From positions 39,060-103,059 of the IMG/VR virus record IMGVR_UViG_3300028888_000058: a stretch of 64,000 nt of DNA. One strand, written 5' to 3'. The stretch is from a virus. Its lineage: Duplodnaviria > Heunggongvirae > Uroviricota > Caudoviricetes. Shown here piece after piece: positions 2,672 to 53,450 of this stretch; the first letter of the stretch is position 1; each line of letters opens with the position of its first letter. The notes under the pieces are model-generated. The model was not told the DNA's origin and did not search any database. It saw only the letters and a program-made list of their open reading frames with translations. The position numbers were made by a program, and so were the translations under genes.

Positions 2672-3091
2672 ATGAAAACAATTAAAGCATACATATTTGA
2701 GCATATAAAGACTCCTGATACTACAAAGGCATTCGTAATTATCAAACCAGGATTCTTAAGTCATGCTGATGAAATATATGATTATATAAAAGACAAAGGA
2801 TTTGAATGTTATGATCATACAGAAACTATGAATCTTGGAGAAGGTCAATGCAAAGAACTTTATAAGATGCATAAAGATAAAGATTTCTATGACGATTTAG
2901 TCAAATATATGCAAGGTGATATTCAAGCATCTATATGGGGTTATGAAGGAGAAGATGATCCTATAGAAATAATGGATAAGATTAAAGATCATTTTAGAAA
3001 TAAGTATGGTAAAGATGATATGAAAAATGTTATGCATAGTTCAGATTCATTAAGAAATGTCAAGAGAGAAGCAAATATAATATTCAATTAA
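2672..3091 (+). CDS. Nucleoside-diphosphate-kinase-like protein with an N-terminal CTS-like decapeptide (MKTIKAYIFE). The track start at 2660 is a TTG.
   Basis: NDK-like FVIIKPG motif, a C-terminal NVMHSSDS matching the NDK catalytic-His region (NIIHGSDS), and a length of about 140 aa. Confidence 0.55.
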   Translation: MKTIKAYIFEHIKTPDTTKAFVIIKPGFLSHADEIYDYIKDKGFECYDHTETMNLGEGQCKELYKMHKDKDFYDDLVKYMQGDIQASIWGYEGEDDPIEIMDKIKDHFRNKYGKDDMKNVMHSSDSLRNVKREANIIFN

Positions 3092-16530: not shown

Positions 16531-16983
16531 ATGAAGAATATTAATAAGTACATAACAGAAAAATACAATACAGATAGTATTGAAGAATATTTGGAATCAA
16601 TTGTAAATTCTGCTAAAGGCAAGCCAGATATTTATGATGACACTGAATCTTGGGAAGCACGAGATGAATTTGATTATTGGCAAGATACATCTGGGCAATG
16701 GGATGATATTTTAGAATTTATAGATAAATATGCCTCTAATAAATGTGTAGCTGGATGGAAGAGTAAAGATTCATTTGAAAGCGTTGAAAAACTAGTTCCT
16801 AATATAGTCCGTAATATTATAAAGAAAAAACCAACAGAAATCCCATATAAGAAAAATTCAAATAAAATGGAAATGTGGGAAACTAAACAAGATGATTTTG
16901 ATATTAAAGTGTTAAAGTTCGGAAACTATGTTAATGATAATGGTACCGATTATAAAGAATATTGGTATATGATTGCTATTTAA
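16531..16983 (+). CDS. CTS-tagged hypothetical protein (MKNINKYITE)
   Basis: The N-terminal decapeptide fits the shared motif. Confidence 0.5.
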   Translation: MKNINKYITEKYNTDSIEEYLESIVNSAKGKPDIYDDTESWEARDEFDYWQDTSGQWDDILEFIDKYASNKCVAGWKSKDSFESVEKLVPNIVRNIIKKKPTEIPYKKNSNKMEMWETKQDDFDIKVLKFGNYVNDNGTDYKEYWYMIAI

Positions 16984-17009
16984 AAATAATAAAGATAACT
17001 ATGAAATCT

Positions 17010-17510
17010 CTTAAAGAACATATTATTGAAGAAGGAATTAAAGATAAAATCAAATCTTTTATCAATAAATTCAAAAAGGAAAAAATTCCAGAGAAGGTTT
17101 ATTCTTCTGATGATTTAGAAAAATATAAAGGTCAAATAATAACACCAAAAGATGCTGATGATATTATTGATATATTAATACATACTGATGATTATTTTAA
17201 AGAGTTTTTAATAAGCAAATATGAACCTAAACGTGAGCATATAAAACAAGAAGCATGTAAAAATGCCATATTAGATTATGCTTATGAAAATAATCAAGAT
17301 AGAATTAAGTATGATAAATATGGAGAAAGACATGCAAATCAAGCTGAATATGAATGTTGTAAACAACATGGTATAGATTCTTCATCAATTGCTGCTGGTG
17401 ATTTAATTCTTGCAATGATAAGACCTTATATTATGGGTTGGAGCTTTGCTGATAAAATGAAATTTAAAGCAGAAGAAAAATATAAGCCAACATATAAGAA
17501 AAATCAATGA
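17010..17510 (+). CDS. CTS-tagged hypothetical protein (MKSLKEHIIE). The track start at 16962 is upstream; the motif ATG lies at 17010.
   Basis: Shared motif. The upstream aagataactATG leader is identical to that at 2663-2674. Confidence 0.5.
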   Translation, partial: LKEHIIEEGIKDKIKSFINKFKKEKIPEKVYSSDDLEKYKGQIITPKDADDIIDILIHTDDYFKEFLISKYEPKREHIKQEACKNAILDYAYENNQDRIKYDKYGERHANQAEYECCKQHGIDSSSIAAGDLILAMIRPYIMGWSFADKMKFKAEEKYKPTYKKNQ

Positions 17511-18166
17511 AATCAATAAAAAACTATATTAATGAATCATTATCAAATGAAATACTTGATTTAAGAAAAAAATTAAGTAAATTAGATAAGTCTAAAATTT
17601 TTAATGGATTATATAATTTAGATGATTCTTTAGATAAAGAATTTTATAATATATTAATTTCATTAAATAAGTCAAATGCATCTAATAGTACTTTAATTAG
17701 TACATGGAAAATGTTGTTTTCAAAATTAATTATAGAACCATTAGTTGGAGAATTAATTGGAGATAATAAATGTGAATATTCTTCAATAAATATTGATAGA
17801 ACAGAGAAATGGGATATTAAATATAATAAGAATATATTAATAGATGTAAAAGCAACTTACAATAATCATACAGGTAATTTTAGTTTTTCTAAAAAAGATG
17901 CAGACTATATAATAAATTACAATAAGCAAGATATCAATAAAAGATATGTATTATTTGTATATCCTGAAATTAAGACTTGGGAAGATACAATAAAAATATA
18001 TAAAAATAAATCTATGGTTGATATGAAATTAATCAGTTATATAGATTTTAAAGAAATATTAAATAATAATGATTTTGAAGAAAAGAAATCAAATATATTA
18101 ATACCTAATTCTTTTATTGAAAAAAATGATAAATTTAGAAAATTTAATAAAAACATAAAGAAATGA
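17507..18166 (+). CDS. CTS-tagged hypothetical protein (MKSIKNYINE)
   Basis: Shared motif. ATGA-coupled. Confidence 0.5.
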   Translation: MKSIKNYINESLSNEILDLRKKLSKLDKSKIFNGLYNLDDSLDKEFYNILISLNKSNASNSTLISTWKMLFSKLIIEPLVGELIGDNKCEYSSINIDRTEKWDIKYNKNILIDVKATYNNHTGNFSFSKKDADYIINYNKQDINKRYVLFVYPEIKTWEDTIKIYKNKSMVDMKLISYIDFKEILNNNDFEEKKSNILIPNSFIEKNDKFRKFNKNIKK

Positions 18167-18351
18167 AATCTTTAAGACAGTATTTGACTGAAGAACTACA
18201 TGATGTAATAGTTAAAGTTGGAGATTATTGGAGAATAAAAGGTCATGCAGGAAAAGGAACAAATACTCCTAAACGTGGATATTGGAAAGCTAAATATAAA
18301 ACAAAGAAAAAAGCAGAAAACGCATTAAAAGCGTATTTTGCAAACAATTAA
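18163..18351 (+). CDS. CTS-tagged small basic protein (MKSLRQYLTE)
   Basis: Shared motif. ATGA-coupled. Confidence 0.5.
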   Translation: MKSLRQYLTEELHDVIVKVGDYWRIKGHAGKGTNTPKRGYWKAKYKTKKKAENALKAYFANN

Positions 18352-18373
18352 ATATATAAATCATTTATAAATT

Positions 18374-19033
18374 ATGAAAGATATTAAATTATTTATTTTA
18401 GAATCATTAAATAATAAACTATTAACTGCTGTTAAAAATCTTAATTATGATTTTTCAGAAACTGCATCTTTATCAAATAATACTAAAGAGAATAGAGCTA
18501 AAAAAACAAAAGCTCAAGCAAAAATATTTATAGATTTATTTAATGAATTAACAGATAAAGATACTCATTTTGATTATAAAGCAATTAGCTGTGAAGATTA
18601 TTGTAAATTAATTAATAAAACATATTCATTTATTGAAGATAGTAAAATAGGAGATATTATTATAATGAATGATAAAACTCCTGAAATGTTTATTGATTTA
18701 AAAGTAGCAGAAACTAATAAATATATTGGAACACCTGATATGTTGTCATTAGTTAATTTTGCTTCTGAACGCGACGATAAAAAATATTATTTATGTTCAT
18801 CATTAGATGGTACACAGACAAAATTAATATTAGCTAATGAAATATACAATATAATAATTTCTAAAAAAGGAAATGTTGTTGTTTCAAAAGATAGAAATTA
18901 TATTTCTAAAGAAGTTGAAGCATTTAAAGATAAAGTAAAATTAGTTGCTCCTAAAAACATGGAAAACGCAGATTTATCAAAACTATATGATGAAGATTTT
19001 GTTGCAACATCTGTAATAACAAATATAAAATAA
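18374..19033 (+). CDS. CTS-tagged hypothetical protein (MKDIKLFILE), bracketed by direct repeats
   Basis: Shared motif. About 45-bp direct repeats at 18300-18345 and 19036-19085. Confidence 0.5.
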   Translation: MKDIKLFILESLNNKLLTAVKNLNYDFSETASLSNNTKENRAKKTKAQAKIFIDLFNELTDKDTHFDYKAISCEDYCKLINKTYSFIEDSKIGDIIIMNDKTPEMFIDLKVAETNKYIGTPDMLSLVNFASERDDKKYYLCSSLDGTQTKLILANEIYNIIISKKGNVVVSKDRNYISKEVEAFKDKVKLVAPKNMENADLSKLYDEDFVATSVITNIK

Positions 19034-19035
19034 TA

Positions 19036-19085
19036 TGAAACAAAAGAAAAGCAGAAAACGCATTAAAAGCGTATTTTGCAAATAA
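19036..19085. repeat. Direct repeat duplicating the 3' end of gene 18163..18351 (aaaagcagaaaacgcattaaaagcgtattttgcaaa)
   Basis: Near-identical to 18300-18345. Confidence 0.6.
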
Positions 19086-19101
19086 ATAATATAATTTAAA
19101 T

Positions 19102-19548
19102 ATGAAGGCATTTAAAGATTATATTTTAGAAAATAAAGTTACAGAATTTAATTATGCTTCTGAAGGAGATCATGATTTTATTGATTAGGTAATTGAATTA
19201 TTGGAATCTAATGGATTTAATAAAAGTGAAAAAAAGATATTAAAATCAAAAGAATATAAGATAACAAATAATGGTTATGAATTATTTGCACGTTCTGAAC
19301 AGAATAAAACTATTAAGAATACTAAATTAGTATGTATTCGTAAAGGAGATAATAATAAATATGACTATTATTATAGATCTTCAAATGATTCATTTTGGAG
19401 ATATAATTTTTCTAAAAATCAACAAATAGTTCGATTTAGAGATTATCAGCATGCTAATACTGGTATTTATGATGTAAAAGATTCTAAATGGCACGATAGA
19501 ATATTGCAATCAATAAGAGGAATATTTAATATTAAAAAGGATAAATAA
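19102..19548 (+). pseudogene. CTS-tagged gene (MKAFKDYILE) interrupted by an in-frame TAG at about 19186-19188. The downstream body (track ORF 19201..19548) is in the same frame.
   Basis: Translating from the ATG at 19102 gives 28 codons, then TAG, then a 120-codon open frame in phase. Confidence 0.45.
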
Positions 19549-20192
19549 TGAAATCAATAACTAATTATATATTTGAAAAGATAAAGGATCTTCCTGATTC
19601 TATTAAAGGATTAATTGTATTTGATATTGATGATACAATATTAAAAGTTGATCCTAATATGATGTCTATTTATAAAAAGGAACCAGGAAAATCTGAAATC
19701 AAATTAACTACTGATGAATTTGCAAAAGATCCTGATGCAGAAGACCAAAGCAAGAGAGATTGGTTTGATTATAGAGATTTTAAAGATCCTGTAAAAGTAT
19801 ATAATTCTATCATATCTGGTACTCCATTGATTAAGAATCTTAAAATAATGGATGATTATGTTAATGCTGGATATGATTTTTGTTTTTTAACTGCACGTTC
19901 ATGTGAAGATACAGTTAAGAAAGCATTATCAGACTTCTTATTAGTTCGTGATGAAAATGGACTTTTAAAAGAATTAGGAGATTCATTTAAAAAGATTATG
20001 TCACATGCAGTTAATGATGAATATAAGAAATACCCTGGTAAGACAGATGCTGAAAAGAAAGCAAACATATTAATTAAGCTTTGTAAAAAATATGATAAAG
20101 TGGTATTTGTAGATGATGATAGAAAAAACGTAAATGCTGCTCGTGAATTGAATATAAAAAATTTAAAAGTAATTAAGGCTTGGGATGAATAA
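19548..20192 (+). CDS. HAD-superfamily phosphatase (Pnk phosphatase-like) with a CTS tag (MKSITNYIFE)
   Basis: Motif I FDIDDTIL (DxDxT), motif II LTARS, motif IV FVDDD. Confidence 0.6.
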   Translation: MKSITNYIFEKIKDLPDSIKGLIVFDIDDTILKVDPNMMSIYKKEPGKSEIKLTTDEFAKDPDAEDQSKRDWFDYRDFKDPVKVYNSIISGTPLIKNLKIMDDYVNAGYDFCFLTARSCEDTVKKALSDFLLVRDENGLLKELGDSFKKIMSHAVNDEYKKYPGKTDAEKKANILIKLCKKYDKVVFVDDDRKNVNAARELNIKNLKVIKAWDE

Positions 20193-20266
20193 AATGAATA
20201 ATAATAAATAATATGAAATCATTAAAAGAATATATTAAAATAAACAATAAAAATATTTTATAAATT

Positions 20267-20758
20267 ATGTTTAATAAAATTAGAGAAAAAATTGGTAAGT
20301 TTATATTACCAAACACTGTAAGAGTAGTTGATGCTACAGATATGACTGTTGATGAATTGATGAATAATCATGTTCAAAAATTAGAACAATTACCTGAAGT
20401 ATTCACTAAAGATTTTCTTGAAGACTTGATTAAAGAATATCCTAAGTTTGATCACCCAAATATTGTAGAATCTGATGGTAAAATAAAATTTACTGATGCT
20501 AATGGAAAGACAGCACAGCTTAAAGTTCCTCTTTTGACTATTGTTCCAATACCTTATATCTCTAAAGATGAAGTAGATTTGGATCAATACATTAAAGATA
20601 ATTTTGGAGATGTTAAATACCCTAAGAGTATGGAAGACATAAAGGGAGTTAAAGTAGAAGTTCCTGCATTGAATATTGTGCCAATACCTGATATAAGTAA
20701 AGATATAGATATTTCTTTTGATAAAGAAGCTAAGAAATCTAAAGAAAATAAAAAATAA
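20267..20758 (+). CDS. Hypothetical protein preceded by an orphan CTS start module (20213-20263, MKSLKEYIKINNKNIL, then in-frame TAA)
   Basis: The motif-bearing 16-codon mini-ORF is in the same frame as the body, separated by TAA ATT. Confidence 0.45.
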   Translation: MFNKIREKIGKFILPNTVRVVDATDMTVDELMNNHVQKLEQLPEVFTKDFLEDLIKEYPKFDHPNIVESDGKIKFTDANGKTAQLKVPLLTIVPIPYISKDEVDLDQYIKDNFGDVKYPKSMEDIKGVKVEVPALNIVPIPDISKDIDISFDKEAKKSKENKK

Positions 20759-20795
20759 TCAAATAATATAATTTCAAATAATATAATTTAAGTTA

Positions 20796-20836
20796 ACCAA
20801 TTAATAAGTATTGGTTAACTTTTTTATTTTTATATA
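20796..20836 (+). terminator. Rho-independent terminator
   Basis: 10-bp stem gttaaccaat/attggttaac followed by ttttttatttt. Confidence 0.5.
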
Positions 20837-20867
20837 TAATAAAATGATAAAAAGATTTTTATAAATA

Positions 20868-22115
20868 ATGAAACATCTACGAGATTATATATTTGAAACA
20901 TCAATTAATGGATTAAAATATTTAATTATGGATTTTGAATCTTCTGAAGATGAAACATTAATGAGTGGCTCACAATTTTATGATGTGTCTAAAAAATTAC
21001 AAAAAACTATTTCAAAAGAAGATTTAAAAAAAATATTTCAATATGCAAAAGATCATAAAAATTTAAAAGAAATTAAAGCTAGACCAGAACCTTTAGTGGC
21101 TAATTATGGTAATAAACATTTAGATTTTGCATTTAGGCGTTGGGTAAAAGATGCTATATTAGATTTAAATATTATAATTCATGGATCAAAAAATATATAT
21201 CATAATACTAATTTAAAAGGTAATGGTGAATGGGTTCCTACAGCTCAAGATATGGAAGATGTTATATCAATAGGATATAATAATGTTAATAAAATTAATA
21301 AAATATCTGAATCAAAAGATGATAAAATTGAACAAATTATAAAATATTACCAAGATAATAAAGATATAATCGATATTATTGTTAAAAAAATAAAATCAGG
21401 AAATTCACCATTAGGAAAACTTCCAACTAAAGGTATTATTGCTTCAGAAAAATGGAAAACTTTAGGAAAGTTTGAAAATATTAAAAATATAAATAATACT
21501 CCTAAAACAGATATCATATCTGCAGATCATAAATTAAAAATTTCATTAAAAGAAGAAGGTGGATCACAACTTATGTCAGGAGGATATCACGAAGCTTTAG
21601 CAACAATATTATGTGCAATTGAAAAATCAAAGTGTTTAGAAGAAGCAAAAGAATTAATTGCATCATTAGATATTAAATGGTTAACAGGATTTAAAGATAT
21701 CGATGGAATTGCAAAAATAAAAAGAAATCCAAATCATAAAGATTATGAATTAATAAAAAATGCTGAAACAAATGGCAATAAAGTTCAAGAATTACTAAAT
21801 AATCTTATAAAGAATAATTCTAAATTTGAATATGAATTATTATATGAAGCAATGACAGGATTAATTAAATTTGGAGAAAGTAATCCTGCATCTGCTAATT
21901 ATATATTGGTTTGGAATGATAAAACACCAGAATCATCTAAATTTTATACTCCAGAAGAATATATTAAACATTTAAAAGAATCAAAAATTCAATATTTAAT
22001 AAATTTTAAATCTGCAAATAATAATTCTTGGCAAAATATGCGTATAATTTGTGGTAACGCAAAATCAACAGATTCAGAAAAAACAGAAATTAAACCAATA
22101 AATAAAAATGAATGA
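20868..22115 (+). CDS. CTS-tagged hypothetical protein (MKHLRDYIFE), 415 aa
   Basis: Shared motif. Overlaps the next gene by 8 nt. Confidence 0.5.
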   Translation: MKHLRDYIFETSINGLKYLIMDFESSEDETLMSGSQFYDVSKKLQKTISKEDLKKIFQYAKDHKNLKEIKARPEPLVANYGNKHLDFAFRRWVKDAILDLNIIIHGSKNIYHNTNLKGNGEWVPTAQDMEDVISIGYNNVNKINKISESKDDKIEQIIKYYQDNKDIIDIIVKKIKSGNSPLGKLPTKGIIASEKWKTLGKFENIKNINNTPKTDIISADHKLKISLKEEGGSQLMSGGYHEALATILCAIEKSKCLEEAKELIASLDIKWLTGFKDIDGIAKIKRNPNHKDYELIKNAETNGNKVQELLNNLIKNNSKFEYELLYEAMTGLIKFGESNPASANYILVWNDKTPESSKFYTPEEYIKHLKESKIQYLINFKSANNNSWQNMRIICGNAKSTDSEKTEIKPINKNE

Positions 22116-23133
22116 AAATTTAAAAGAGGTACGTATATGTCTTGGCAGGTTTCAGCCATTCACATTAGGTCATCTTAAAATGGCTACTTATAAAGATCTT
22201 AAAGGTCCAGATAAAGAACAACAAGATAAGTTAAGAGAACAACCTAATTTAGAAGATATATCTAAACAGAAGACAATCATATTAGCAATATCTACACCAG
22301 ATGATAAAGTAGATACAAGACACCCTTTTAATGATGACTTAATGAAAAAAGAATTTGAATTAGTTAAGAAAAATTATAAGGATGATATCGAAGATGTATT
22401 ATATGTTTCTTCAGCAGATATATGTGCATGGGGTGAATTAATTAAGAAATCTGGATATAAAGCTTCAGTATGGTTGACTGGTTCTGATGAATTTAGTTTC
22501 TATAAAGGAATGGCTATTAAAGTTCCAGAATATGAAGAACATAATAAAAATAATAAAGATTGCAAAGATGCATATACAAAATCGTTTTATGTTGAAGAAA
22601 TTGAAAGAACTGAAGATAAAGATTTTGTATCATCAATATCTGGTACAAAAGTTCGTCAGTCATTATTAGATGGTGATAAAGAACTATTTACAAAAATGAT
22701 GCCAAAAGGAGTCGATAGATATTTTGATGAATTTAAAGAAAAAGTTGAAAATGCTCCAGAACCTAAGAAGAAAGAATCTAAAAAATCATTAAAAAACAAA
22801 ATTAAAGAAGATATGAAATCAATTAAAGACTTTATTTTAGAATCAAAACAAAATGAAAATCAAAAAGAATTAAATAATGCTATAGACATTATAAAAACTT
22901 GTTTAGATAAAAAAGGATATAAAGAAGATGAATTTAAGATAACTAAAGTATTTGGAAACGAAATAAGAGTTTATTTTATAAAAGGTTCAAATACTCATCA
23001 TGAAGCAGTTTCTAAAATTGGTAAATATATTGATAATGAATTATATAAAGCTCATAGTAAAGTATCTCATAAGACTATGGGTAAAGGTAAAGAAGGAGAA
23101 TATTATCAAGCATTTACAATTAATATATTTTAA
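22108..23133 (+). CDS. NMN/NaMN-adenylyltransferase-like (cytidylyltransferase fold) protein fused in-frame to a CTS-tagged module that begins at the internal ATG at 22813 (MKSIKDFILESKQN...)
   Basis: GRFQPFTLGHL (HxGH-type motif) and ISGTKVRQSL (SGTxxR motif). The internal 30 nt atgaaatcaattaaagactttattttagaa are identical to the start of the next gene at 23140. Confidence 0.5.
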   Translation: MNENLKEVRICLGRFQPFTLGHLKMATYKDLKGPDKEQQDKLREQPNLEDISKQKTIILAISTPDDKVDTRHPFNDDLMKKEFELVKKNYKDDIEDVLYVSSADICAWGELIKKSGYKASVWLTGSDEFSFYKGMAIKVPEYEEHNKNNKDCKDAYTKSFYVEEIERTEDKDFVSSISGTKVRQSLLDGDKELFTKMMPKGVDRYFDEFKEKVENAPEPKKKESKKSLKNKIKEDMKSIKDFILESKQNENQKELNNAIDIIKTCLDKKGYKEDEFKITKVFGNEIRVYFIKGSNTHHEAVSKIGKYIDNELYKAHSKVSHKTMGKGKEGEYYQAFTINIF

Positions 23134-23139
23134 ATTATT

Positions 23140-23445
23140 ATGAAATCAATTAAAGACTTTATTTTAGAAAGCAAAGCACCAAATAAAATATCTGCATCAG
23201 GTAAGAAAAAATTAACAAAATATATTGATGATCTAATTAAAAATATAGATGATATATATGATTATGCAGGTATTCCTACTGATGATGCTGACCAAGTAGA
23301 TTCTGATTGTAGAGATACAATATGGAATTGGGTTAATGATGAAGGAATATGTAACTGGGATACTGAAGATAAAGAATCAGTTGGATTTATAAATGATGAA
23401 TATAATAGATTATCTAAAGCTATATGTGATAAATATAAATTATAA
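23140..23445 (+). CDS. CTS-tagged hypothetical protein (MKSIKDFILE)
   Basis: Shared motif. Confidence 0.5.
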   Translation: MKSIKDFILESKAPNKISASGKKKLTKYIDDLIKNIDDIYDYAGIPTDDADQVDSDCRDTIWNWVNDEGICNWDTEDKESVGFINDEYNRLSKAICDKYKL

Positions 23446-23447
23446 TT

Positions 23448-24332
23448 ATGAAATCATTTAAAAACTATATATTAGAATCATTAGTTATAGAAGGTGGTAA
23501 TGCAGTTAAAGCAGAACCAATTCCTGCAGTAATAGCGCCTAAGGTTTATGATGAGATTGAAAAGAAAGTTCATTCAATATCAAAGTTTAAAGATATTGAT
23601 ATGGCAGCTTTAGGTAGTATTGGCAAAAAGGCAGATGACCAGACTAATGGAGATATTGATGTTGCAGTTAAAGTCGATACTAAGGATGAACTTAATGAAA
23701 TAGTTGATACTTGCTTTGGCGACTGTGAAATCAATTATAATACAATGAAGACTATTACATCATTTGGATATCCTTATGATATAGATGGTTATAAAGGTAT
23801 TGCACAAGTTGATTTTATGATAGTTAAAAAGATGGACTGGGCTAAAGCATATTATCATTCTCCTAACTTAAAGACTGGTGAATCAAAATACAAAGGTGCT
23901 GTACGAACTGCTGCATTAAGTTGTGTCATATCTTGTTTGCCAGTTCCTGATGTAAAAGATGAATATTTTGAAGATGGTGTTACAGTTAAGAAACATTGGA
24001 AACATACATTCAATACAGAAGGTGTATTCATTCAATTGATTGATTACTGTGGAAAGAATGGTAAGCCTGTTAAGAATGGTAAGAAGATTAAAGAATTTGA
24101 AAAATTAGTCACTAATGATCCAACTAATTTAGTAAGATTCATATTTGGAGATAATGGTACTATAGAAGATATTAATTCAATTGAATCTTTATGGAAAGCT
24201 ATACATGATCCTAAGAAATTCAACTGGGGTGATGAAGTATTAGCCGCTATTGAAAAGAAAATAATTGAAGACCCTGGATTAGAAGGAAAACTTAATAAAG
24301 AAGATTTTCCATGTAAATTTTATAAAGGTTAA
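23448..24332 (+). CDS. Pol-beta-superfamily nucleotidyltransferase with a CTS tag (MKSFKNYILE)
   Basis: LGSIGKKADDQTNGDIDVAV fits the minimal NTase signature [GS]-x(9-13)-DxD. Confidence 0.55.
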   Translation: MKSFKNYILESLVIEGGNAVKAEPIPAVIAPKVYDEIEKKVHSISKFKDIDMAALGSIGKKADDQTNGDIDVAVKVDTKDELNEIVDTCFGDCEINYNTMKTITSFGYPYDIDGYKGIAQVDFMIVKKMDWAKAYYHSPNLKTGESKYKGAVRTAALSCVISCLPVPDVKDEYFEDGVTVKKHWKHTFNTEGVFIQLIDYCGKNGKPVKNGKKIKEFEKLVTNDPTNLVRFIFGDNGTIEDINSIESLWKAIHDPKKFNWGDEVLAAIEKKIIEDPGLEGKLNKEDFPCKFYKG

Positions 24333-24335
24333 ATT

Positions 24336-24947
24336 ATGAAACAAATAAATAATTTTATAAATGAGAAACTTATTATAAATAAGAATATTAAAGTTGATAA
24401 GTATCATTATCATCCTATAGATAATAAAGAATTAAAAGATCTTATTGAAAAATTAATTAAAGAACGTGGAAATGAAGCAAATTTGAATGATATTGATACA
24501 TCACAGATAACAGACATGTCAAATTTATTTGAAGATTCAGATTTTAATGGAGATATATCAAAATGGGATATAAGTAATGTCAAAGATATGTCAGGTATAT
24601 TTCTTAATTCTGATTTTAACGGTGATATATCTGAATGGGATGTAAGTAATGTTAAAAATATGTTATTTATGTTTAATAGTTCTAAATTTGATGGAGATTT
24701 AAGTAAATGGGATGTAAGTAATGTTACAAATATGGCATCAATGTTTGCTGAATCTAAATTTACTGGTAAAAATGGAGATATATCTAATTGGGATGTAAGT
24801 AATGTTGAATTTATGTCATATATGTTTAATGATTCTAAGTTCAGTGGAAACATTTCTAAATGGAATATAAGTCGCGATACAAATATATATAAAATGTTTA
24901 AAGGTTCTCCATTAGAAAAGAATCCACCTAAATGGTACAAGAAATAA
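24336..24947 (+). CDS. DUF285-type (Mycoplasma/Listeria-type) 26-residue-repeat protein with a CTS tag (MKQINNFINE)
   Basis: Five tandem repeats of the form GDISxWDVSNVxNMxxMFxxSxF. Confidence 0.55.
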   Translation: MKQINNFINEKLIINKNIKVDKYHYHPIDNKELKDLIEKLIKERGNEANLNDIDTSQITDMSNLFEDSDFNGDISKWDISNVKDMSGIFLNSDFNGDISEWDVSNVKNMLFMFNSSKFDGDLSKWDVSNVTNMASMFAESKFTGKNGDISNWDVSNVEFMSYMFNDSKFSGNISKWNISRDTNIYKMFKGSPLEKNPPKWYKK

Positions 24948-24980
24948 TAAAAAATATTATAAAGATAATTTGATAATTAA

Positions 24981-26447
24981 ATGGAACATTTAATAGATAG
25001 ATATTTAAAGAAGCCTGAAGTAGTTAAAGATTTATTTACAAAAGAAGTAAGTATATCTTTAAAAGTTGATGGCGCTGCATTTCAGATATCTTATGATAAA
25101 GAAAATGATAATATAACATATCATAAGCGTGGTGGTTCTTCAAAATCATTAGGTCCTATTATTGATGAATATACTCAATTAATGAGAAAGAACATTAATG
25201 ATGCTATTGATTATTTTGAATCTAAAAAGGAAGCTGTTAAGAAGTATAAATTTTATGCTATTGAAATGTTCAACGATTCTTATATTCTTTTGACTGTTAT
25301 AGATAATGATAATAATATAATAGATGATAGAAATAAGTTAGAAGAAATATCAAAATCATTAGGCATAGATTGTGTTCCTATATTATTTGAAGGTAAATTA
25401 AATAAAGAACAGATTGAATCATTAATGTCAATGATGACATTAGAATCAGAAACTTCTAATGATGTATATAAAGAATATCTTACTAATATATTTGGTAAAG
25501 GTGACTATCAGAAATTTTTAGTCGGAGATGAAGTTGAAGGTATTGTATTGACATGGAATATAGATAATGCAATATCGCAGTATAAGATAATTAATCCTGC
25601 ATTTAAGACTCGTCATGATAAAGAAATCAAACAAGGAAATGAAGATTATAAGAAAGAAATAGAAGAATACATTAACTTATATGAATTGATATATGAAACT
25701 ATTAATAAAATTGGCAAACATGAGAATGATAATTGGATTAAGAATTTAGATGCTAATTTTATTAATATGATTAATAATGAAGAATTCAAATCTAAATATG
25801 AAGATATAATAGATACATTACAACCTAAGTTTAAAGATTTCTTTACATTACAGATTAATAAAGCATCTAAAGAAATACAAGATATCATCAAAGAGTATGG
25901 TGACAATATGAAGTTCTTATATGAAAAATATTTACAAGTATTTTTCAAACAAAAGAAACGTAACTATTTTATATCTAAAGAATTCCAATTAAATGTCAAT
26001 AAAGTAATCGAAAGACTTCAAAAAATAAATGAATCTAAACTTTCTCAATATATGAGAAGAAACATTAAATCATTTGGTGAATATTTTATTGATGAAAAAT
26101 TAAAAATTAATAAAGATACAAAAATTAATACAGTAGTATATTCAACAAATACTGGTAAGAAAATAGAAGTCATTAAAAAAGTTGCTGAAGATACTGAATC
26201 ATGGAAAAAATTTGAAAGTTTTGTACTTCAATTACGTCGTTTTAATTTAATGAAATATAGTAGAATACTTGTTTGTAATATTGAAGATGACAAATGGGTA
26301 ACAAATACAAAACAAAGTTATTCAATAAATGATTATCAACCAAATTATAGATATCTTTATTCGAGTCAGAAAAATTATTATACATATAAACAAGTAATTG
26401 AAATGCTTGAAAGCGGCAAACACATAATTATATTAGCAGGTAAATAA
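24981..26447 (+). CDS. ATP-dependent polynucleotide (probably RNA) ligase-like nucleotidyltransferase
   Basis: Motif I SLKVDGAAF (KxDG) and motif IV-like VEGIVLTW. Context includes the Pnk kinase and phosphatase. Confidence 0.45.
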   Translation: MEHLIDRYLKKPEVVKDLFTKEVSISLKVDGAAFQISYDKENDNITYHKRGGSSKSLGPIIDEYTQLMRKNINDAIDYFESKKEAVKKYKFYAIEMFNDSYILLTVIDNDNNIIDDRNKLEEISKSLGIDCVPILFEGKLNKEQIESLMSMMTLESETSNDVYKEYLTNIFGKGDYQKFLVGDEVEGIVLTWNIDNAISQYKIINPAFKTRHDKEIKQGNEDYKKEIEEYINLYELIYETINKIGKHENDNWIKNLDANFINMINNEEFKSKYEDIIDTLQPKFKDFFTLQINKASKEIQDIIKEYGDNMKFLYEKYLQVFFKQKKRNYFISKEFQLNVNKVIERLQKINESKLSQYMRRNIKSFGEYFIDEKLKINKDTKINTVVYSTNTGKKIEVIKKVAEDTESWKKFESFVLQLRRFNLMKYSRILVCNIEDDKWVTNTKQSYSINDYQPNYRYLYSSQKNYYTYKQVIEMLESGKHIIILAGK

Positions 26448-26450
26448 ATT

Positions 26451-26786
26451 ATGAAATCAATTAATGAATATATTTATGAATCTCAAAATACATATTTTTC
26501 CGAACAAGAAATTGGAAAGATTATGAAAGATATGTGGAATAAGAATGGCATCTTTTATAAGTTCATTAAAGATAAAGTAGATTCATTAAAAGCGGCTGAC
26601 ATAAATGATTATTTAGATCAATGTTTAGATGATAATAGATGTACAGCAGAATTTGCAGCATATATAGAAATGGTTATTGGACGTCATAATTTTAGTTTAG
26701 AACAAGTTCAGAAATTTATAAATACAAATGATTTAAAGGATGAAGAACCTAAAAGACATTATATCAGAGAAACTTATAATCAATAA
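26451..26786 (+). CDS. CTS-tagged hypothetical protein (MKSINEYIYE)
   Basis: Shared motif. Confidence 0.5.
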   Translation: MKSINEYIYESQNTYFSEQEIGKIMKDMWNKNGIFYKFIKDKVDSLKAADINDYLDQCLDDNRCTAEFAAYIEMVIGRHNFSLEQVQKFINTNDLKDEEPKRHYIRETYNQ

Positions 26787-27162
26787 GAATACTAAAGTTG
26801 AATCTTATAAGGATATTGATTATGATAATCCTGAAGATATATGTAATATTTATAAAGCTGCAGTTATATCTATAATGAAAAATTCTTCTTATATAGAAGG
26901 CCCAACATTTAAAAAGACATTAGTTAGAATTCAATATAACGACATTATAGATATTCTTAATGATGTTTTTGAATATAAGAATATTGATTATGATGAAGGC
27001 AAAATTAAAAAAGGTAATGTTTGGAGAATAATAAGTAATGATAAAAAGGCAATTCAAAATATTATAAATGGATATACTATAACACTTAAATATGATAGAA
27101 ATATTAAATTATCATATAAAGAATTATTTGAAAAATACAAAGATATTATCAATAAGAAATGA
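26740..27162 (+). CDS. CTS-tagged hypothetical protein (MKNLKDIISE); overlaps the previous gene by 47 nt
   Basis: Shared motif. Confidence 0.45.
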   Translation: MKNLKDIISEKLIINKNTKVESYKDIDYDNPEDICNIYKAAVISIMKNSSYIEGPTFKKTLVRIQYNDIIDILNDVFEYKNIDYDEGKIKKGNVWRIISNDKKAIQNIINGYTITLKYDRNIKLSYKELFEKYKDIINKK

Positions 27163-27683
27163 AATCAATTTTAACATACATAAAAGAATCATTAAATATA
27201 TTTGAAAAACAAAATCCTTTTAATGTTTGGATAATGGTTGGTCTTCCAGGTTCAGGTAAGTCTACATATATTAAAGAAGAACTTCCAAAAAATATTGAAA
27301 TTATTAATCAAGATTCAATAAGAGTTGAACTTGGAATTATGAAAGATGATGATCATAAAGCTATAGGTGATAAAGAACAAGAAAAGGAAGTGACTAGAAT
27401 TAATGATGAACGTATTAATGAACTTATAAGACAACGCAAAGATTTTGTTATTGATAATACAAATGTTAAAGCAGGACGTGTTGAAAACTATTATAGTAAG
27501 TTAAATAAAGCTGGTGCTAATGTTAAGATAGTCATTATAGATACTCCTAAAGATGTTTGCAAGAAACGTAGAAATGATTGCATACCTGAGAAAGTAATTG
27601 ATGATATGGAATTAGGAATCAATAAAGTTAAGAAAATATTTAAAGACAATAAAGATACTATCATTATAACAGATAGATACTAA
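27159..27683 (+). CDS. Polynucleotide 5'-kinase (T4 Pnk kinase-domain-like) with a CTS tag (MKSILTYIKE)
   Basis: Walker A IMVGLPGSGKST. VIDNTNVKAGRVENYY aligns with T4 Pnk IISDTNLNPERR. C-terminal region resembles Pnk. Confidence 0.6.
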   Translation: MKSILTYIKESLNIFEKQNPFNVWIMVGLPGSGKSTYIKEELPKNIEIINQDSIRVELGIMKDDDHKAIGDKEQEKEVTRINDERINELIRQRKDFVIDNTNVKAGRVENYYSKLNKAGANVKIVIIDTPKDVCKKRRNDCIPEKVIDDMELGINKVKKIFKDNKDTIIITDRY

Positions 27684-27715
27684 ATATTTATTTTAAAAAA
27701 CATATATAAGTAATA

Positions 27716-28081
27716 ATGAAAGATTTAAATAACTATATAGTTGAACGCGGAGCTGCGCCAGGATTAGGTGATAGAAAACCTTTGCATAGAAATCCTGCAG
27801 TAAATATGATACAATCAATTTTAGATGAATTATCTAAACATAATGATTGTAAATATGATAAAGAAAAAGATGCATGGTCTGGTAAAGACGCAGATCTTTG
27901 GAAAGGTGCAGGACAGTTCTTATTTGATTATGTACAAGAATTAAATCAAAAGGATTTTGAAGAAATTGTTGATCATTTTGGTTGGAAGCAATTTATACCT
28001 GATGTAAATGACATACATCCTTCAGAAATATCAATGTGTGTAGCATTAATATTGAATTCAAATAAACAAAAAGAAAGTTAA
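27716..28081 (+). CDS. CTS-tagged hypothetical protein (MKDLNNYIVE)
   Basis: Shared motif. Confidence 0.5.
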   Translation: MKDLNNYIVERGAAPGLGDRKPLHRNPAVNMIQSILDELSKHNDCKYDKEKDAWSGKDADLWKGAGQFLFDYVQELNQKDFEEIVDHFGWKQFIPDVNDIHPSEISMCVALILNSNKQKES

Positions 28082-44505: not shown

Positions 44506-46659
44506 ATGGGAAAACATATTAAATTAACTCAAACAGTTGGGCAGGAAAATAACGTACCTGCTCAACTTATAACAAAACTATATACATTATATAGTAATCA
44601 ATTAAAAGGATTGGATTCATGGGACTGTAATGAAGACTCTATACAAGGAACATTTAAGACAGGATATACATATGATAAATATGTAGAAGCATTACATTCA
44701 TTCTTCAATAATCTTAATATTATATCTGAAGGATATTATGTATATTTTGAAGATCCTGTTGTAGAATCAATAATATTAAACCAATTAGTTAATGTAATAT
44801 ATCCAGAAAAACATTATGAAGGAGTTATTACAGGTTTAGAAGTAAATAATTCAGGTAATTCTGATTATTATGGATTTAGACGAATATTTAAAGGCAATAA
44901 TGAAATACAAACATTTGATGAGCTATCAAAACTAACAAATGTGAAAGCATTAGCAACAAGTGAATTTGCTAGTTCACAATCATTAACAAGCATAGATTTA
45001 ACAAATATTGAAACATTTGGAATTAATGCATTTGCATATTGTTCTAATTTAGAATTCTTTAATGGACAGAATTCAGAAAAAGGATCTTTACGTTTGCCTA
45101 ACCTTAAATCAAACGGTTTCTCTGGAGGAATCTTTCAATGGGAAAAGACAAATAATGTATGGAGAGGTCCTAAAGTAAAAAAGATATATGACTTAGGAAA
45201 CTGTACAGTCATACAAGATAGAATATTTTTACACTGTATTTCACTTGAATATATTGAAGACGGCATATTAGAACAAATTACACGTATTGGACATTATTCA
45301 TTTCAATACTGTGAAAACTTGATAATAAATGACTTAAAATTGCCTAATATAACAACTATAGGAAATGAAGCATTTCGCAATACACAAATAAAGAAAATAT
45401 CTGAATTGGGAAACTGTACGATATGTGAATACACATTTGAATACTGTGATAAATTAACATCAATATCTCCAGAAGCATTAGAAAATATAACAAAAATATA
45501 TAAAGGGGCATTTGCATATTGTACAAATTTGGTAATAGATGACTTAAGTCTACCACAATTAACAGAAATTAGTGAAGATGCATTTAGAGGATGTAAAATA
45601 AAAACAGTATCGAACTTAGGTAATGTAACAACAGTAACTGGATTTACAAATTGCACAACACTAACATCAGTATCAATTCCATTAAGTGCAAATAAATTAG
45701 GTCAAAGTGCGTTTATGGGATGTGTCAATCTAACAGGTGTCAATGATATCATAAATAGAATAACATATTTTGATACTGATTGTATGACAGGTATATTAAC
45801 ATTACCATCAATTATATACATAAAAGCTAATGTTTGTAGTTATAGACCATTTAAAGATTCAAATGTTAGATCAATGTATCTTCCTAACATAACACATACA
45901 AACAGTATTAGTGGATATGATACTCCAGGTGTTGGTAGATTAAATAGAACAGTAATGTGTGGATCAACAATGGATATCTATTATCTAAAAAATATTCGTA
46001 AAATAAATGGATGGCTATTTGGTGGTAAGTCATACGCCGACATATATGCAACGGAATGGGATGGAACCTTATATTATAATACAAACTATGAAGGTCTAGG
46101 AAGACGTAGAGAAAACAATAATTGGGTACAGGAATATAAAGGCGCGGTACCATTTGGAGAACGTGGGCAACGTATCGACAAGTGGGCAGCTAATGTACTT
46201 TGGGCAAATATAAAATATTTGGTCATAAATAATACAACACCACCAGAATATTGGCAATCAACATATCAATATGGAGGCAGTATATTTAGTAGTATATCAT
46301 TATATATGAAAGCTGAGAGCGGATCTAATGAAACTTTCCATTATTTGGTTGTACCTAGATCTGCAATTAATACATATTTAAACTGGGATGCAATCAATCC
46401 TGATTTAAGTTCACCAAATTTAGACAGTGAGTATAGACAAAAATTTACTGATATTACCAAGTTTACAAATGATGCTACTGAAAATAGAATAATAGCTTTA
46501 GAAAGCATGGGGCATTTTGCAACAAAAGCAGAATATGATGCTGCTCCAGATATGCCAGATGGAGTACATAGTAAAAATGAATATCTAATAGAAGAATACA
46601 TGGGATTATTACCAGGAGAGTCAATTAACTGGGATTCAACTCCAACTTGGGGAGTATAA
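44506..46659 (+). CDS. BspA-type leucine-rich-repeat protein, paralog 1; putative receptor-binding protein
   Basis: Shares an approximately 100-aa N-terminal domain with the next two genes. Repeats of the form AFxxCxNL...LPNIT. C-terminus IEEYMGLLPGESINWDSTPTWGV. Confidence 0.55.
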   Translation: MGKHIKLTQTVGQENNVPAQLITKLYTLYSNQLKGLDSWDCNEDSIQGTFKTGYTYDKYVEALHSFFNNLNIISEGYYVYFEDPVVESIILNQLVNVIYPEKHYEGVITGLEVNNSGNSDYYGFRRIFKGNNEIQTFDELSKLTNVKALATSEFASSQSLTSIDLTNIETFGINAFAYCSNLEFFNGQNSEKGSLRLPNLKSNGFSGGIFQWEKTNNVWRGPKVKKIYDLGNCTVIQDRIFLHCISLEYIEDGILEQITRIGHYSFQYCENLIINDLKLPNITTIGNEAFRNTQIKKISELGNCTICEYTFEYCDKLTSISPEALENITKIYKGAFAYCTNLVIDDLSLPQLTEISEDAFRGCKIKTVSNLGNVTTVTGFTNCTTLTSVSIPLSANKLGQSAFMGCVNLTGVNDIINRITYFDTDCMTGILTLPSIIYIKANVCSYRPFKDSNVRSMYLPNITHTNSISGYDTPGVGRLNRTVMCGSTMDIYYLKNIRKINGWLFGGKSYADIYATEWDGTLYYNTNYEGLGRRRENNNWVQEYKGAVPFGERGQRIDKWAANVLWANIKYLVINNTTPPEYWQSTYQYGGSIFSSISLYMKAESGSNETFHYLVVPRSAINTYLNWDAINPDLSSPNLDSEYRQKFTDITKFTNDATENRIIALESMGHFATKAEYDAAPDMPDGVHSKNEYLIEEYMGLLPGESINWDSTPTWGV

Positions 46660-46687
46660 TATAATAAAATTATAAAGTAAATAACGA

Positions 46688-48487: not shown

Positions 48488-48525
48488 ACATAAAACTAAA
48501 AAATAAAATTAAATAATATTTAATA

Positions 48526-48595
48526 GAAGAATATATGGGATTAGGTCCAAATGAAACAATTAACTGGGATTCAACTCCAACATGGTCAATATAAA
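48526..48595 (+). pseudogene. Orphan remnant of the paralog-1 C-terminus (IEEYMGLGPNETINWDSTPTWSI, then stop)
   Basis: About 85% nucleotide identity to 46590-46659. Confidence 0.5.
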
Positions 48596-48611
48596 TATAT
48601 GAACATATAAT

Positions 48612-51665: not shown

Positions 51666-53450
51666 ATGTTTAATGAACAAAATGGTGTACAGACATGGGA
51701 GAAGATGTTGAAAGAAAACTTCAATGTTACAGACCAGGAAAAACTTAACTGGGTGTCTCAGTACGCAGCTATTCATGAAATTCACGAATCTCAACTTGGA
51801 ATTAATGGTGGTCAAGTAGTTACTAACGCTACAACTTATCCAGGTGTTGGTCCTATCTATACTACTCCAATGAACACTACAGGTATGGGTAATATTGCTG
51901 CTCCAAGTCAATTAGATCCAATGAGCACAGCTCCATATAACCAAGCTAATCCAACAGGTTCATTCTGGGGTCAAACTCCAGGTTCAGGTGATATTCCTGT
52001 ATCAACATTACCAATGGCTCTTAACGTTGCATTGTTAACTATTGGTCTTGAATTAGTTCCAGTTATCCCTGCTAAGGGTCCTTGGGCTATGTTAACTTAC
52101 ATGGACTTCCCATATGCTGGTGGTAAGTTAGGTCGTGTAAACGAAACTTCATTCGATGGTAAGGGTGATCTTAATGAAAACAAACCAATCTATGTTAAGA
52201 TCAAGGGTCTTACACTTGCTCAGATCCAAACAATCCGTCAAGGTATGGAAGCTGCAACTCCAACAGTTAAAGCTGATGATACTGTAACTGTAGGTGGATT
52301 TGAAGGTAAGTTCATTTCATTAGGTCGTATGGATGCTTGCCCACTTGTAAAAGTTGTTAAGTGTTCAGATGCTAATCACTCAATCCGTGAAGAATTCGAC
52401 GCTGCTACTTCTGTAGTAATCGGTAGTGTTACTATCACTCTTACTGCTGCTAATGCTTCTACAGGTGTTCCTGCTCAAAAGGTTGAAGCTGACTTCGTAC
52501 AGACTTCTGTTGATTTAGTAGATGGTTTCGCAAACTTCTTCGATGGTTCTAAGAATTCAATGACACGTGCTCAGAATGAAACTGGTACAGGTAATGTAAT
52601 CGGTCTTCGTTTATTCAGCAAGTGGATCCAAATGGGTGCTTATGAAGTAACTGGTACTGTTACTCGTCAACAGTTACAAGATCTTCCATTATATGGCGTA
52701 GATGCTGTAGGTAAAGTTATGGAAGCTCTTCAAAACGAAATCACTCAACATATCAACCAACGTATCCTTGAAAGAGTATTCGCACTTGGTGTTACTAATG
52801 CTGCTCAACAAAAGGCTCGTCAGGGTGTTGATTTGAACTTGTGGATGGGTAAGACTGGTTCTACAATTTCTATGGCTCAAGCTTATGCTGGTGTACCTCA
52901 CTTCACAGATATCTACGGATATGATCACAAACCAACTTGGACAGGTATTAAGAACTCAGAAGTTAATACTTCTGCTGAAAATCTTTCTACACGTCAACGT
53001 CGTATCATGAGCCGTATCTTAGCTGCTGCTAACTTAATCCAATTGGTAGGTCGTCGTGGCCGTCCAACATGGATCGTTACTAACGGTAAGATTGCTTCTG
53101 CATTACAAGATGTATCTGGTTACGTTGTAGCTCCATTCTTGAACACAATGTCTCAAGCTAATACTCAGAACTTATACCACGCAGGTACTGTTGCTGGTCT
53201 CCAAGTTTATGTAGATCCTTACATGGATTGGAATGATACTCGTATCTGTATCGGTCGTAAGGGTACTGGTAACGAACCTGGTGTAATCTTTATGCCTTAT
53301 ATTCTTGCAGATACTATTAGTATTACTGCTGAAGGAACTATGGCTCCTAAGATGTTGGTTAACAGCCGTTATGCAATCGCTGAAGCTGGCTTCTTCCCAG
53401 AACTCGCATATTTCACAATGGTTGTTGATTCAGAGTTCGATATCATCTAA
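51666..53450 (+). CDS. Major capsid protein (T4 gp23-like)
   Basis: C-terminal VYVDPYMDWNDTRICIGRKGTGNEPGVIFMPYILA parallels gp23 VYIDQYAKQDYFTVGYKGPNEMDAGIYYAPYVAL. N-terminal IHEIHE|SQLGINGG resembles the gp23 propeptide junction LTE|AEIGG. GC-richer codons. Confidence 0.7.
   Translation: MFNEQNGVQTWEKMLKENFNVTDQEKLNWVSQYAAIHEIHESQLGINGGQVVTNATTYPGVGPIYTTPMNTTGMGNIAAPSQLDPMSTAPYNQANPTGSFWGQTPGSGDIPVSTLPMALNVALLTIGLELVPVIPAKGPWAMLTYMDFPYAGGKLGRVNETSFDGKGDLNENKPIYVKIKGLTLAQIQTIRQGMEAATPTVKADDTVTVGGFEGKFISLGRMDACPLVKVVKCSDANHSIREEFDAATSVVIGSVTITLTAANASTGVPAQKVEADFVQTSVDLVDGFANFFDGSKNSMTRAQNETGTGNVIGLRLFSKWIQMGAYEVTGTVTRQQLQDLPLYGVDAVGKVMEALQNEITQHINQRILERVFALGVTNAAQQKARQGVDLNLWMGKTGSTISMAQAYAGVPHFTDIYGYDHKPTWTGIKNSEVNTSAENLSTRQRRIMSRILAAANLIQLVGRRGRPTWIVTNGKIASALQDVSGYVVAPFLNTMSQANTQNLYHAGTVAGLQVYVDPYMDWNDTRICIGRKGTGNEPGVIFMPYILADTISITAEGTMAPKMLVNSRYAIAEAGFFPELAYFTMVVDSEFDII

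Follow-up and report, generated by a model that had tools for sequence, protein, structure and literature searches.

A short coding repeat resembling the T4 capsid targeting sequence as a likely site of recombinational fusion between phage genes

How a phage gene comes to run, without a stop codon, into what elsewhere is a separate gene is the question raised by an open reading frame (ORF) in a 64,000-nucleotide stretch of a Caudoviricetes virus (IMG/VR record IMGVR_UViG_3300028888_000058, positions 39,060 to 103,059; hereafter the window). The 341-residue product (ORF 22108-23133) begins as a nucleotidyltransferase, passes through a ten-residue peptide, MKSIKDFILE, which we refer to as the tag, and ends in a small domain that we call cassette X; the gene that follows, cassette Y, opens with the same tag. 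A preliminary description of this DNA had proposed that a gene resembling an NMN adenylyltransferase (NMNAT) was either fused by recombination between start modules to the module at 22813, or contained a nested gene with its own start. The sequence features on which this was based are where it placed them: the ORF is open into the module at 22813, where codon 236 is an in-frame ATG opening MKSIKDFILESKQNEN, a purine-rich aaagaag lies upstream at 22803-22809, and the HxGH-type and SGTxxR motifs are represented by GRFQPFTLGH (residues 13-22) and ISGTKVR (residues 177-183). The start of the span it gave, 22108-23445, is also correct, but 23445 is the end of the following gene and not of the fused ORF. 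The ORF at 22108-23133 is a genuine single open reading frame in which the enzyme and cassette X are joined.

The 30 nucleotides ATGAAATCAATTAAAGACTTTATTTTAGAA at 22813-22842 recur exactly at 23140-23169, as previously described, and the match reaches 31 nucleotides if one flanking T is counted. This identity exceeds what a shared peptide would give, because the same nine codons are reused for the same peptide, including the rare GAC (11% of Asp codons), for which p is approximately 0.002 under window codon usage. The remaining tag copies in the window have 18-27 of the first 33 nucleotides in common with either 30-nucleotide copy.

To which of the two joined parts the tag belongs can be judged from 120 cluster representatives that match the 341-residue protein (P numbers below). 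The nucleotidyltransferase part terminates in the tag in about 100 homologues. Close to half of the representatives (58) are proteins of 192-252 residues that stop 3-12 residues past a copy of the tag, typically ending in KVKEGMISLKNYILESIQ, and distant forms (34-40% identity; 192-209 residues) are likewise tag-ended, with H, K, Y or F and not Met as the first tag residue (for example VKESHISLIDFIQERLVDID and FKNLKDFILETLKTSKN, each followed directly by the stop). Alignment of 40 sequences shows at least 90% conservation of three tag residues (L239, I243 and E245) and of two residues shortly ahead of the tag (K233 and E234), and almost every homologue has [VI]KE[GSC] in front of the tag. The tag is therefore not foreign to the enzyme, whose family natively ends in [x][x]S-L-x-x-[YF]-I-x-E, and the module at 22813 is more than the start of a second gene, a copy of the tag being the native C-terminus of the enzyme family.

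The preliminary description had also raised the prospect that a sequencing error hides a stop codon before 22813. None of the 120 homologue representatives has a stop before the tag, and therefore this objection fails; several independent assemblies also share the open junction. More generally, an assembly or sequencing artefact, or a decaying pseudogene, might be suspected given that the linker is A-rich, homopolymeric and indel-prone, but the junction is open in assemblies made from different samples with different pipelines (P0001, P0002 on 4 contigs, and P0003), homologue stops, where present, always lie past the tag, and X is in frame and 98.5-100% conserved. Since the same fusion as in the window is carried by P0001 (8 member sequences) and P0002 (whose three contigs shown represent three samples), we consider an artefact to be effectively refuted. 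Recoded stop codons, which occur in Lak-type relatives, were considered separately and rejected: read with code 11, the ORFs run long and contiguous, and the puzzle here is a missing stop codon and not an extra one.

The probable origin of the fusion emerges from gene order at related loci (L numbers). The window reads enzyme-tag-X, tag-Y, tag-Z, where Z is a further tag-led cassette. L004 (P0003) reads enzyme-tag-Y, tag-Z; compared with the window, it lacks exactly the 327 bp lying between the 30-nucleotide repeats, and its two blastn alignments to the window (22097-22842 and 23139-24325) share the 31-nucleotide tag. In L001 and L002 the order is enzyme-tag-X, tag-Z; Y is missing, with the breakpoint within the Y and Z tags. 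L005 has an unfused enzyme (ending ESIQ, then stop) that is overlapped by the ATG of a Z-like gene. Along the enzyme, linker and tag, identity between the window and L001 runs at 92.5%, 82.0%, 88.6% and 80.6% (the last value for linker plus tag), whereas in X it is 100% and then 98.5%, the rise starting exactly at 22843. This jump therefore suggests that the X cassette was recently exchanged, with a crossover at the 3' end of the tag. We infer that the fusion arose by homologous recombination within tag-coding DNA; the earlier proposal of recombination between start modules is, given the breakpoints in the sister contigs, the best explanation, and the proposed read-through fusion holds in that the ORF is truly fused, with its junction within the shared 'start module'. 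In mechanistic terms, the C-terminal tag of the enzyme and the N-terminal tag of a cassette downstream would recombine, and the enzyme stop codon, which stands 3-12 codons past the tag in unfused relatives, would be lost. The copies at 22813 and 23140 would be the substrates for the next event, in which X would be deleted and the enzyme fused to Y, as in L004, and recombination between tag-coding repeats could in this way both create and remove fusions. The features concerned are listed in Table 1.

Table 1. Positions in the window of the fused gene, its tag copies, the tag-led genes and the head genes discussed in the text (aa, amino acids)
Feature	Position	Strand	Details
Fused ORF	22108..23133	+	341 aa, without internal stop
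HIGH-superfamily nucleotidyltransferase core, aa 1-214	22108..22749	+	GRFQPFTLGH at 22144-22173; ISGTKVR at 22636-22656
Lys-rich disordered linker, aa 215-235	22750..22812	+	Ends I-K-E (22801-22809), possible first [ILV]-x-E protease site
Tag copy 1, MKSIKDFILE, aa 236-245	22813..22842	+	Fusion junction, internal ATG; I-L-E (22834-22842), second possible protease site
Cassette X, aa 246-341 and stop	22843..23133	+	Small alpha/beta domain
Cassette Y, 101 aa	23140..23445	+	Opens with tag copy 2 (23140-23169), the same 30 nt as at 22813-22842
Cassette Z, 294 aa, tag-led MKSFKNYILE	23448..24332	+	Commonest enzyme fusion partner in relatives
Array of tag-led genes	16531..28081	+	Starts 16531, 17507, 18163, 18374, 19102, 19548, 20868, 23140, 23448, 24336, 26451, 27159, 27716
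Further tag-led starts outside array	2672, 33122
Prohead protease fused to scaffold-like half, 575 aa	49821..51548	+	phrog_207 'head maturation protease' 6e-40
Major capsid protein, T4 gp23 family	51666..53450	+	PF07068 Gp23 5.5e-29; I-H-E-I-H-E-S near aa 36-42

The window is far from an isolated case. Counting as fused any protein with at least 70 residues past the enzyme core, 46 of the 120 database representatives, in addition to the window, are fused at the tag, and their tails group into about 17 real partner clusters. Of the partner families, at least four also occur as free-standing genes, namely X, Y, Z-like and the L005 9129 gene (the partner in P0028). Two tandem tags stand at the junction in P0022, P0036 and P0058, which indicates loss of a stop codon, and a single hybrid tag in the window, P0003 and P0030, which indicates a crossover within the tags. 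In old fusions the junction Met has been lost and the [IL]-x-E before the partner kept (KISLKNYIQE, IKSLYTYLFE, and NLLFE followed by GGHVF). P0023 was not counted among the partners; past its poly-Lys linker it has a GC-rich, Pro/Gly/His-rich tail unlike these phages and is probably an assembly chimera or an A-run frameshift.

Further signs of rearrangement were seen on either side of the fused gene. Upstream, the tag-led 415-residue gene at 20868-22115 overlaps the enzyme start by 8 nucleotides (ATGAATGA), and the same slot in L001, L002 and L005 holds a different gene (353-355 residues, DUF7487), so the cassette 5' of the enzyme would also be exchangeable. Downstream, the 488-residue RNA ligase ORF (24981-26447) has an internal tag-like stretch, MRRNIKSFGEYFIDEKLKINKDTK, at approximately residue 349 (about nucleotides 26025-26090); its L014 homologue has only 341 residues and is followed by a separate tag-led gene, and in L001 a deletion splits the ligase ORF, the second piece being called from the internal tag-like Met. 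This ORF is probably a second read-through fusion in the window.

The C-terminal 106 residues of the fused protein are found free-standing and tag-led in proteins of 98-102 residues (P0121-P0125, 61-79% identity), and L008 carries X as a gene of its own, two genes downstream of another enzyme copy. X is thus an independent cassette that is elsewhere a separate tag-led gene. Its AlphaFold 2 model has a predicted local distance difference test score (pLDDT) of 84 and no significant neighbour in the PDB (the best being a designed protein and S6 permutants, E >0.004), and the sequence has no Pfam, PHROG or NCBIfam match. In a full-length alignment of mixed enzyme-only and X-only sequences, MAFFT misplaced the X-only rows (24-29% apparent identity), so this alignment was not used and the two parts were modelled separately. 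Z lies downstream of the enzyme in every relative examined (including L001, L004 and L005), a Z-like domain of approximately 300 residues is present in 25 of 47 fused proteins, and one enzyme-Z fusion, P0068, has 266 member sequences. Z has no Pfam, PHROG, NCBIfam or PDB sequence match; by eye, its pattern GS..GKK..(9 aa)..GDIDVA is like a Pol-beta-type nucleotidyltransferase signature.

Given that X exists as a gene of its own, one may ask whether the internal ATG (22813) is the main, or an additional, start for its synthesis, which would make the read-through tail of the enzyme incidental. The ATG is kept at the junction in the window and in P0001, P0002 and P0003, the 20 nucleotides upstream of it are A-rich, and, as most genes here have no Shine-Dalgarno sequence, initiation may need no more than an unstructured A-rich leader. 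The Met may, however, merely be inherited from the start of the donor cassette, and its replacement by K, I, Y, N or E in older fusions (P0045, P0049, P0075, P0080 and P0087) means that the family tolerates true single-chain fusions. In addition, position -3, which is G at 22813, is A at all but three of the 15 other tag-led starts (those three overlap an upstream stop), and there is no nearby stop for termination-reinitiation coupling. On balance we think a nested gene unlikely.

If recombination between tags explains how the fusion arose, it leaves the question of why so many genes carry the tag. The pattern M-K-x-[ILF]-x-x-[YF]-I-x-E opens 15 window ORFs, the sixteenth copy being the internal one at 22813, and a relaxed form of the motif stands at residue 1 of 15 ORFs vs 7 internal matches over all window ORFs. 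In a logo of the 16 window tags, the codons of the conserved residues vary at the third position but are invariant at the first and second, and therefore selection acts on the peptide and not on the RNA. A role for the repeat at the RNA level, as a translation enhancer or downstream box, was rejected on the same grounds, as well as because the tag occurs at C-termini without a start codon and its conserved positions are hydrophobics and Glu. The peptide has a close counterpart in phage T4, whose internal proteins IPII and IPIII begin MKTYQEFIAE. In T4, targeting depends on residues 4 and 7 of the capsid targeting sequence and processing on residues 8 and 10 (PMC9026906); the conserved positions of the window tag are exactly 4, 7, 8 and 10. 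AlphaFold models the tag as a low-confidence helix on a disordered linker. Arrays of tag-led genes are also present in relatives, with 12 genes in 20 kb beside an S77 protease and a capsid gene in L014, six in L005 and eight in L008.

Several observations on the leaders themselves may be added. In the more distant relative LR756500.1, genes near a protein with the same HIGH domain (L020, 259957-272472; ORFs 3267, 4564, 6536 and 7233) open with the variant leaders MKFLKSYEEFLNE, MEFVKTYLEFINE and MEYVKLFEEFVND, which are nearer still to the KTYQEFIAE of T4. There are hints of a longer leader subtype, in which the tag is followed by a second conserved stretch, EKL-x-INKNTK, on the DUF285 gene and the gene at 26740 (window 24336 and 26740) and on several fusion partners (P0043, P0046, P0050 and P0066). 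The ORF at 2672-3091 is tag-led (MKTIKAYIFE), and an NDK Pfam match (1.1e-17) among the window ORFs was assigned to it by eye, the batch scan not naming the ORF.

Resemblance to the T4 sequence would carry more weight if the machinery that reads it were present, and the window has both a gp21/S77-type prohead protease and a gp23-family capsid gene. The protease-scaffold protein weakly matches T4 gp21 (5jbl, E 0.0095), its L014 homologue matches PF03420 (Peptidase_S77), and an [ILV]-x-E site lies near residues 38-47 in four related capsid proteins. The scaffold half has approximately ten tandem 12-residue repeats of the form xQxW[IV]xEEF[AS]PE (vQnW[IV]vEEF[AS]PE), at roughly 50823-51201. The same kind of repeat, QDWITEEYSxKV, is found in the L014 protease homologue, and the aromatic-[IV]-x-E core of the repeat resembles that of the tag; this region may be one of multi-site cleavage, or a scaffold unit that the tag mimics. 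Regarding the position of the leader, free-standing X, Y and Z have it at the N-terminus, the enzyme at the C-terminus and the fused window ORF at residues 236-245. A precedent for processing away from the N-terminus is T4 Alt, whose C-terminus is also processed, at LTE-619 (PMC5694885).

By analogy with T4, then, the tag would act like a capsid targeting sequence and dock the protein to the prohead scaffold core. The gp21/S77-type protease would cut after the tag Glu (between I-L-E245 and S), and a second cut would probably fall after the conserved upstream site, between I-K-E234 and D; together, the two cuts would excise the tag and free the enzyme and X from the packaged fusion. Packaging followed by splitting would make fusions nearly neutral and would account for their recurrence. 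Taken as a whole, fusion by tag recombination combined with T4-like packaging and cleavage is the best explanation we can offer for this locus, and one that we consider moderately probable.

There are nonetheless several points that weigh against it. Packaging and cleavage are things that we purely infer for an uncultivated phage, and capsid targeting in T4 was demonstrated for N-terminal leaders, from which the internal and C-terminal copies seen here differ. The window protease itself reaches no Pfam threshold, only its L014 homologue doing so. The internal ATG is kept in an A-rich, presumably unstructured sequence from which X could be initiated separately. The tag also leads ordinary cytoplasmic enzymes that are not packaged in T4, namely NDK, the kinase and phosphatase halves of Pnk and a HAD hydrolase, and could therefore serve another purpose. 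An [ILV]-x-E site is, moreover, short and frequent by chance.

The presence of the tag on such enzymes leads to a different view, in which this peptide forms a short amphipathic helix that docks, for example, to a hub protein, into a multi-enzyme complex or at a compartment, and the fusion stays uncut and bifunctional. That the tag heads metabolic and RNA-repair proteins unpackaged in T4 (NDK, Pnk kinase, HAD phosphatase and DUF285), is helical by prediction, and is found in enzyme-Z fusions that are abundant and old, which suggests functional coupling, is all in keeping with this. It accounts less readily for the position-by-position match to the T4 sequence at its mapped residues, for the strict conservation of Glu10 and the persistence of [IL]-x-E in degenerate old junctions, for the aromatic-[IV]-x-E core repeated in the protease-scaffold protein, and for the tag array of L014 adjoining the S77 protease and the gp23-type capsid gene. 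We regard a docking helix as possible but doubtful. Packaging and cleavage could, on the other hand, be taken further than we have done above: the tag may be a universal, position-independent address label that works at the N-terminus, at the C-terminus or as a cleavable linker, the capsid being loaded with a large and rapidly reshuffled set of enzymes injected together with the DNA, tag fusions acting as self-resolving polyproteins and the tag DNA serving as the recombination site. The injected set may then include the nucleotidyltransferase, the RNA-repair set, NDK and many other proteins. We put this forward only tentatively.

What the enzyme itself does bears on these readings. Its motifs include TLGH at residues 19-22 (HLGH in P0001, P0002 and P0012) and ISGTKVR, and G21, H22, S178, T180 and R183 are invariant in 40 homologues. 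The AlphaFold model built with these homologues (pLDDT 88.8) has a core that ends at residue 214, with residues 224-235 below a pLDDT of 50, and a predicted Rossmann-like fold of the class I aminoacyl-tRNA synthetase/nucleotidyltransferase type. The nearest solved folds appear to be NMN/NaMN adenylyltransferases, with 14-19% identity to archaeal/NadM NMNATs. Placement in this family rests on the fold, because profile searches stay below curated or significance thresholds: for PF01467 the window enzyme scores 15.1 bits against a cut-off of 21, with precomputed matches in P0088-P0115 and 31.8 bits for the LR756500.1 homologue, and sub-threshold Pfam, NCBIfam and PDB-sequence matches centre on GRFQPFxxGH and ISGTKVR...MMPKG. 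When the N-terminal domain was compared with NMNAT profiles, as the preliminary description had suggested, every model fell far short of its cut-off (PRK01153 19.8 vs 127, TIGR01527 17.4 vs 181, PRK05379 16.6 vs 409), and the distant homologues P0092 and P0118 were also far under the NMNAT cut-offs. We therefore describe the enzyme as a predicted adenylyl/cytidylyl-transferase with an NMNAT-like fold, apparently closest to NMNATs; the earlier name is right as to the HIGH-motif nucleotidyltransferase and, it appears, its nearest folds, and does not extend to membership of the NMNAT profiles.

A role in NAD+ salvage, which had been suggested as a counter to NAD+-depleting defences, is not supported by the surroundings of the gene. 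Its conserved neighbours encode an RNA ligase, a polynucleotide kinase in two halves (kinase and HAD phosphatase) and the Pol-beta-like Z. A tblastn search with the enzyme found only an unannotated sequence in LR756500.1 (26.5% identity), in which the HIGH domain forms the C-terminal third of a tagless 653-residue protein whose N-terminal part is weakly like the window RNA ligase. No NAMPT (the NadV/NAMPT partner proposed earlier), NAPRTase or Nudix family is among the matches listed for 58 ORFs of the window (25 of 26 Pfam families, E <= 1e-4), which covers 64 kb of a genome of roughly 400-460 kb. Taken together, the RNA-repair neighbours and the domain setting in LR756500.1 point no less to RNA repair or modification than to NAD+ salvage. 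It could still be that the enzyme is an NMN adenylyltransferase in a NARP2-like reconstitution of NAD+ against such defences, given that its GRFQPF(T/H)xGH is in the style of the archaeal/NadM NMNATs; the shortfall against the NCBIfam NMNAT models (for example 19.8 bits against 127), the conserved RNA-repair neighbours and the ligase-like partner in LR756500.1 all speak against it. The missing Nampt is weak evidence, because the NARP2 study reports that 94% of phages with a KVP40-type Nampt also encode Nmnat (10.1101/2024.02.11.579819) and does not report the converse. Overall we consider an NAD+ role quite improbable. As to the RNA-repair set, its members in the tag array (19548-20192, 24981-26447 and 27159-27683) comprise a HAD phosphatase (phrog_415), a P-loop kinase (phrog_505/AAA_33) and an RNA ligase (PF09414), and the polynucleotide kinase is split into two genes, HAD phosphatase and P-loop kinase, both tag-led.

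The source of the window appears to be an uncultivated gut megaphage, of a 400-460 kb lineage, with T4-type head machinery. This follows from its head and tail genes (the gp23-family major capsid protein, the 575-residue protease-scaffold protein and a tail sheath), from the capsid protein being 31-37% identical to homologues in LR756500.1 (a 462-kb uncultured phage), Sphingomonas phage PAU, Tenacibaculum and Lak phages, and from enzyme homologues sitting on metagenomic contigs of up to 404-460 kb. The window has approximately 27% GC and is coded almost entirely on one strand. Window positions 20800-24400 had no blastn match in cultured phages, and a scan of genome collections returned only two contigs, both binned in 'uncultured Romboutsia' metagenome-assembled genomes; we make no claim as to host, because the binning of an AT-rich phage contig is not evidence of one. 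Beyond the array, window 44506-49655 holds three consecutive BspA-type leucine-rich-repeat proteins (717, 599 and 347 residues) that share an N-terminus, ..HIK(L/V)(T/N)Q....NVP..LITKLY.., and look like paralogous tail-fibre or receptor-binding candidates.

The locus illustrates how capsid-targeting-like tags shuffle and fuse genes, with three sister arrangements capturing the recombination process in action. If the tag is a targeting and cleavage signal, the injected proteins of these phages could be read from sequence, including enzymes never known to be packaged, and one short coding repeat would be at once a protein address and a hotspot at which recombination creates, moves and fuses genes. 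There is also a caveat for annotation, in that long 'multidomain' proteins predicted for these phages may be fused cassettes that are separated by later cleavage. Foreign proteins are already loaded into capsids by means of the T4 capsid targeting sequence, and a tag that works at the C-terminus or as a linker would extend this tool.

Part of this picture is already known, namely the T4 capsid targeting sequence and the variable loci encoding injected internal proteins with nothing in common but that leader. A literature search for capsid-targeting tags found none described in megaphages and, for jumbo phages, only the SPN3US work and a paper on DNA modification. What is new here is that an enzyme carries the tag at its C-terminus or internally, that the tag family reaches such a scale in a megaphage lineage, that there is direct evidence of a coding tag as a crossover site, and that in-frame fusions recur as a result. 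The T4 internal proteins (IPI, IPII, IPIII and Alt) are the closest comparison: they share a 10-residue leader of near-identical pattern with conserved positions 4, 7, 8 and 10, this leader heads many unrelated small genes clustered in variable loci, the capsid protein and the protease are of the gp23 and gp21 types in both, and Alt has a C-terminal propeptide. In the window, by contrast, the tag is also found at the enzyme C-terminus and inside fusion proteins, there are at least 16 copies in 64 kb, and recognisable enzymes, not small basic proteins alone, are headed by it; the lineage, uncultivated and with genomes of 400-460 kb, is only distantly related to T4.

The remaining comparisons are more partial. 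With the archaeal/NadM-type NMNATs (EC 2.7.7.1) the enzyme shares a Rossmann-like HIGH fold, GRFQPFxxGH and ISxTxxR, but it differs in its low identity (14-19%), its failure to reach the hidden Markov model cut-offs, its Lys-rich linker and tag, and an insert of approximately 30 residues (about residues 29-59) that is absent in short homologues. NARP2 (the Nampt and Nmnat of KVP40) likewise involves a phage-encoded NMNAT-like fold; the window differs in having no Nampt among the matches listed and in its RNA-repair neighbourhood. The ejection proteins of phiKZ/SPN3US-type phages resemble the proposed substrates in being head proteins cut after Glu, at multiple sites per protein, by a gp21-related protease, but their propeptides are long, have A/S/G-x-E motifs and lack a common 10-residue leader, and we know of no description of recombinational fusion at the leader for propeptides of this type. 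Lastly, in the variable internal-protein loci of T4-type phages, short boundary repeats (PeSLs) mediate the insertion, deletion and replacement of small genes (PMC2839356). Those repeats are non-coding, consisting of a promoter and a stem-loop, whereas the recombining repeat here is coding, so crossovers within it yield in-frame protein fusions.

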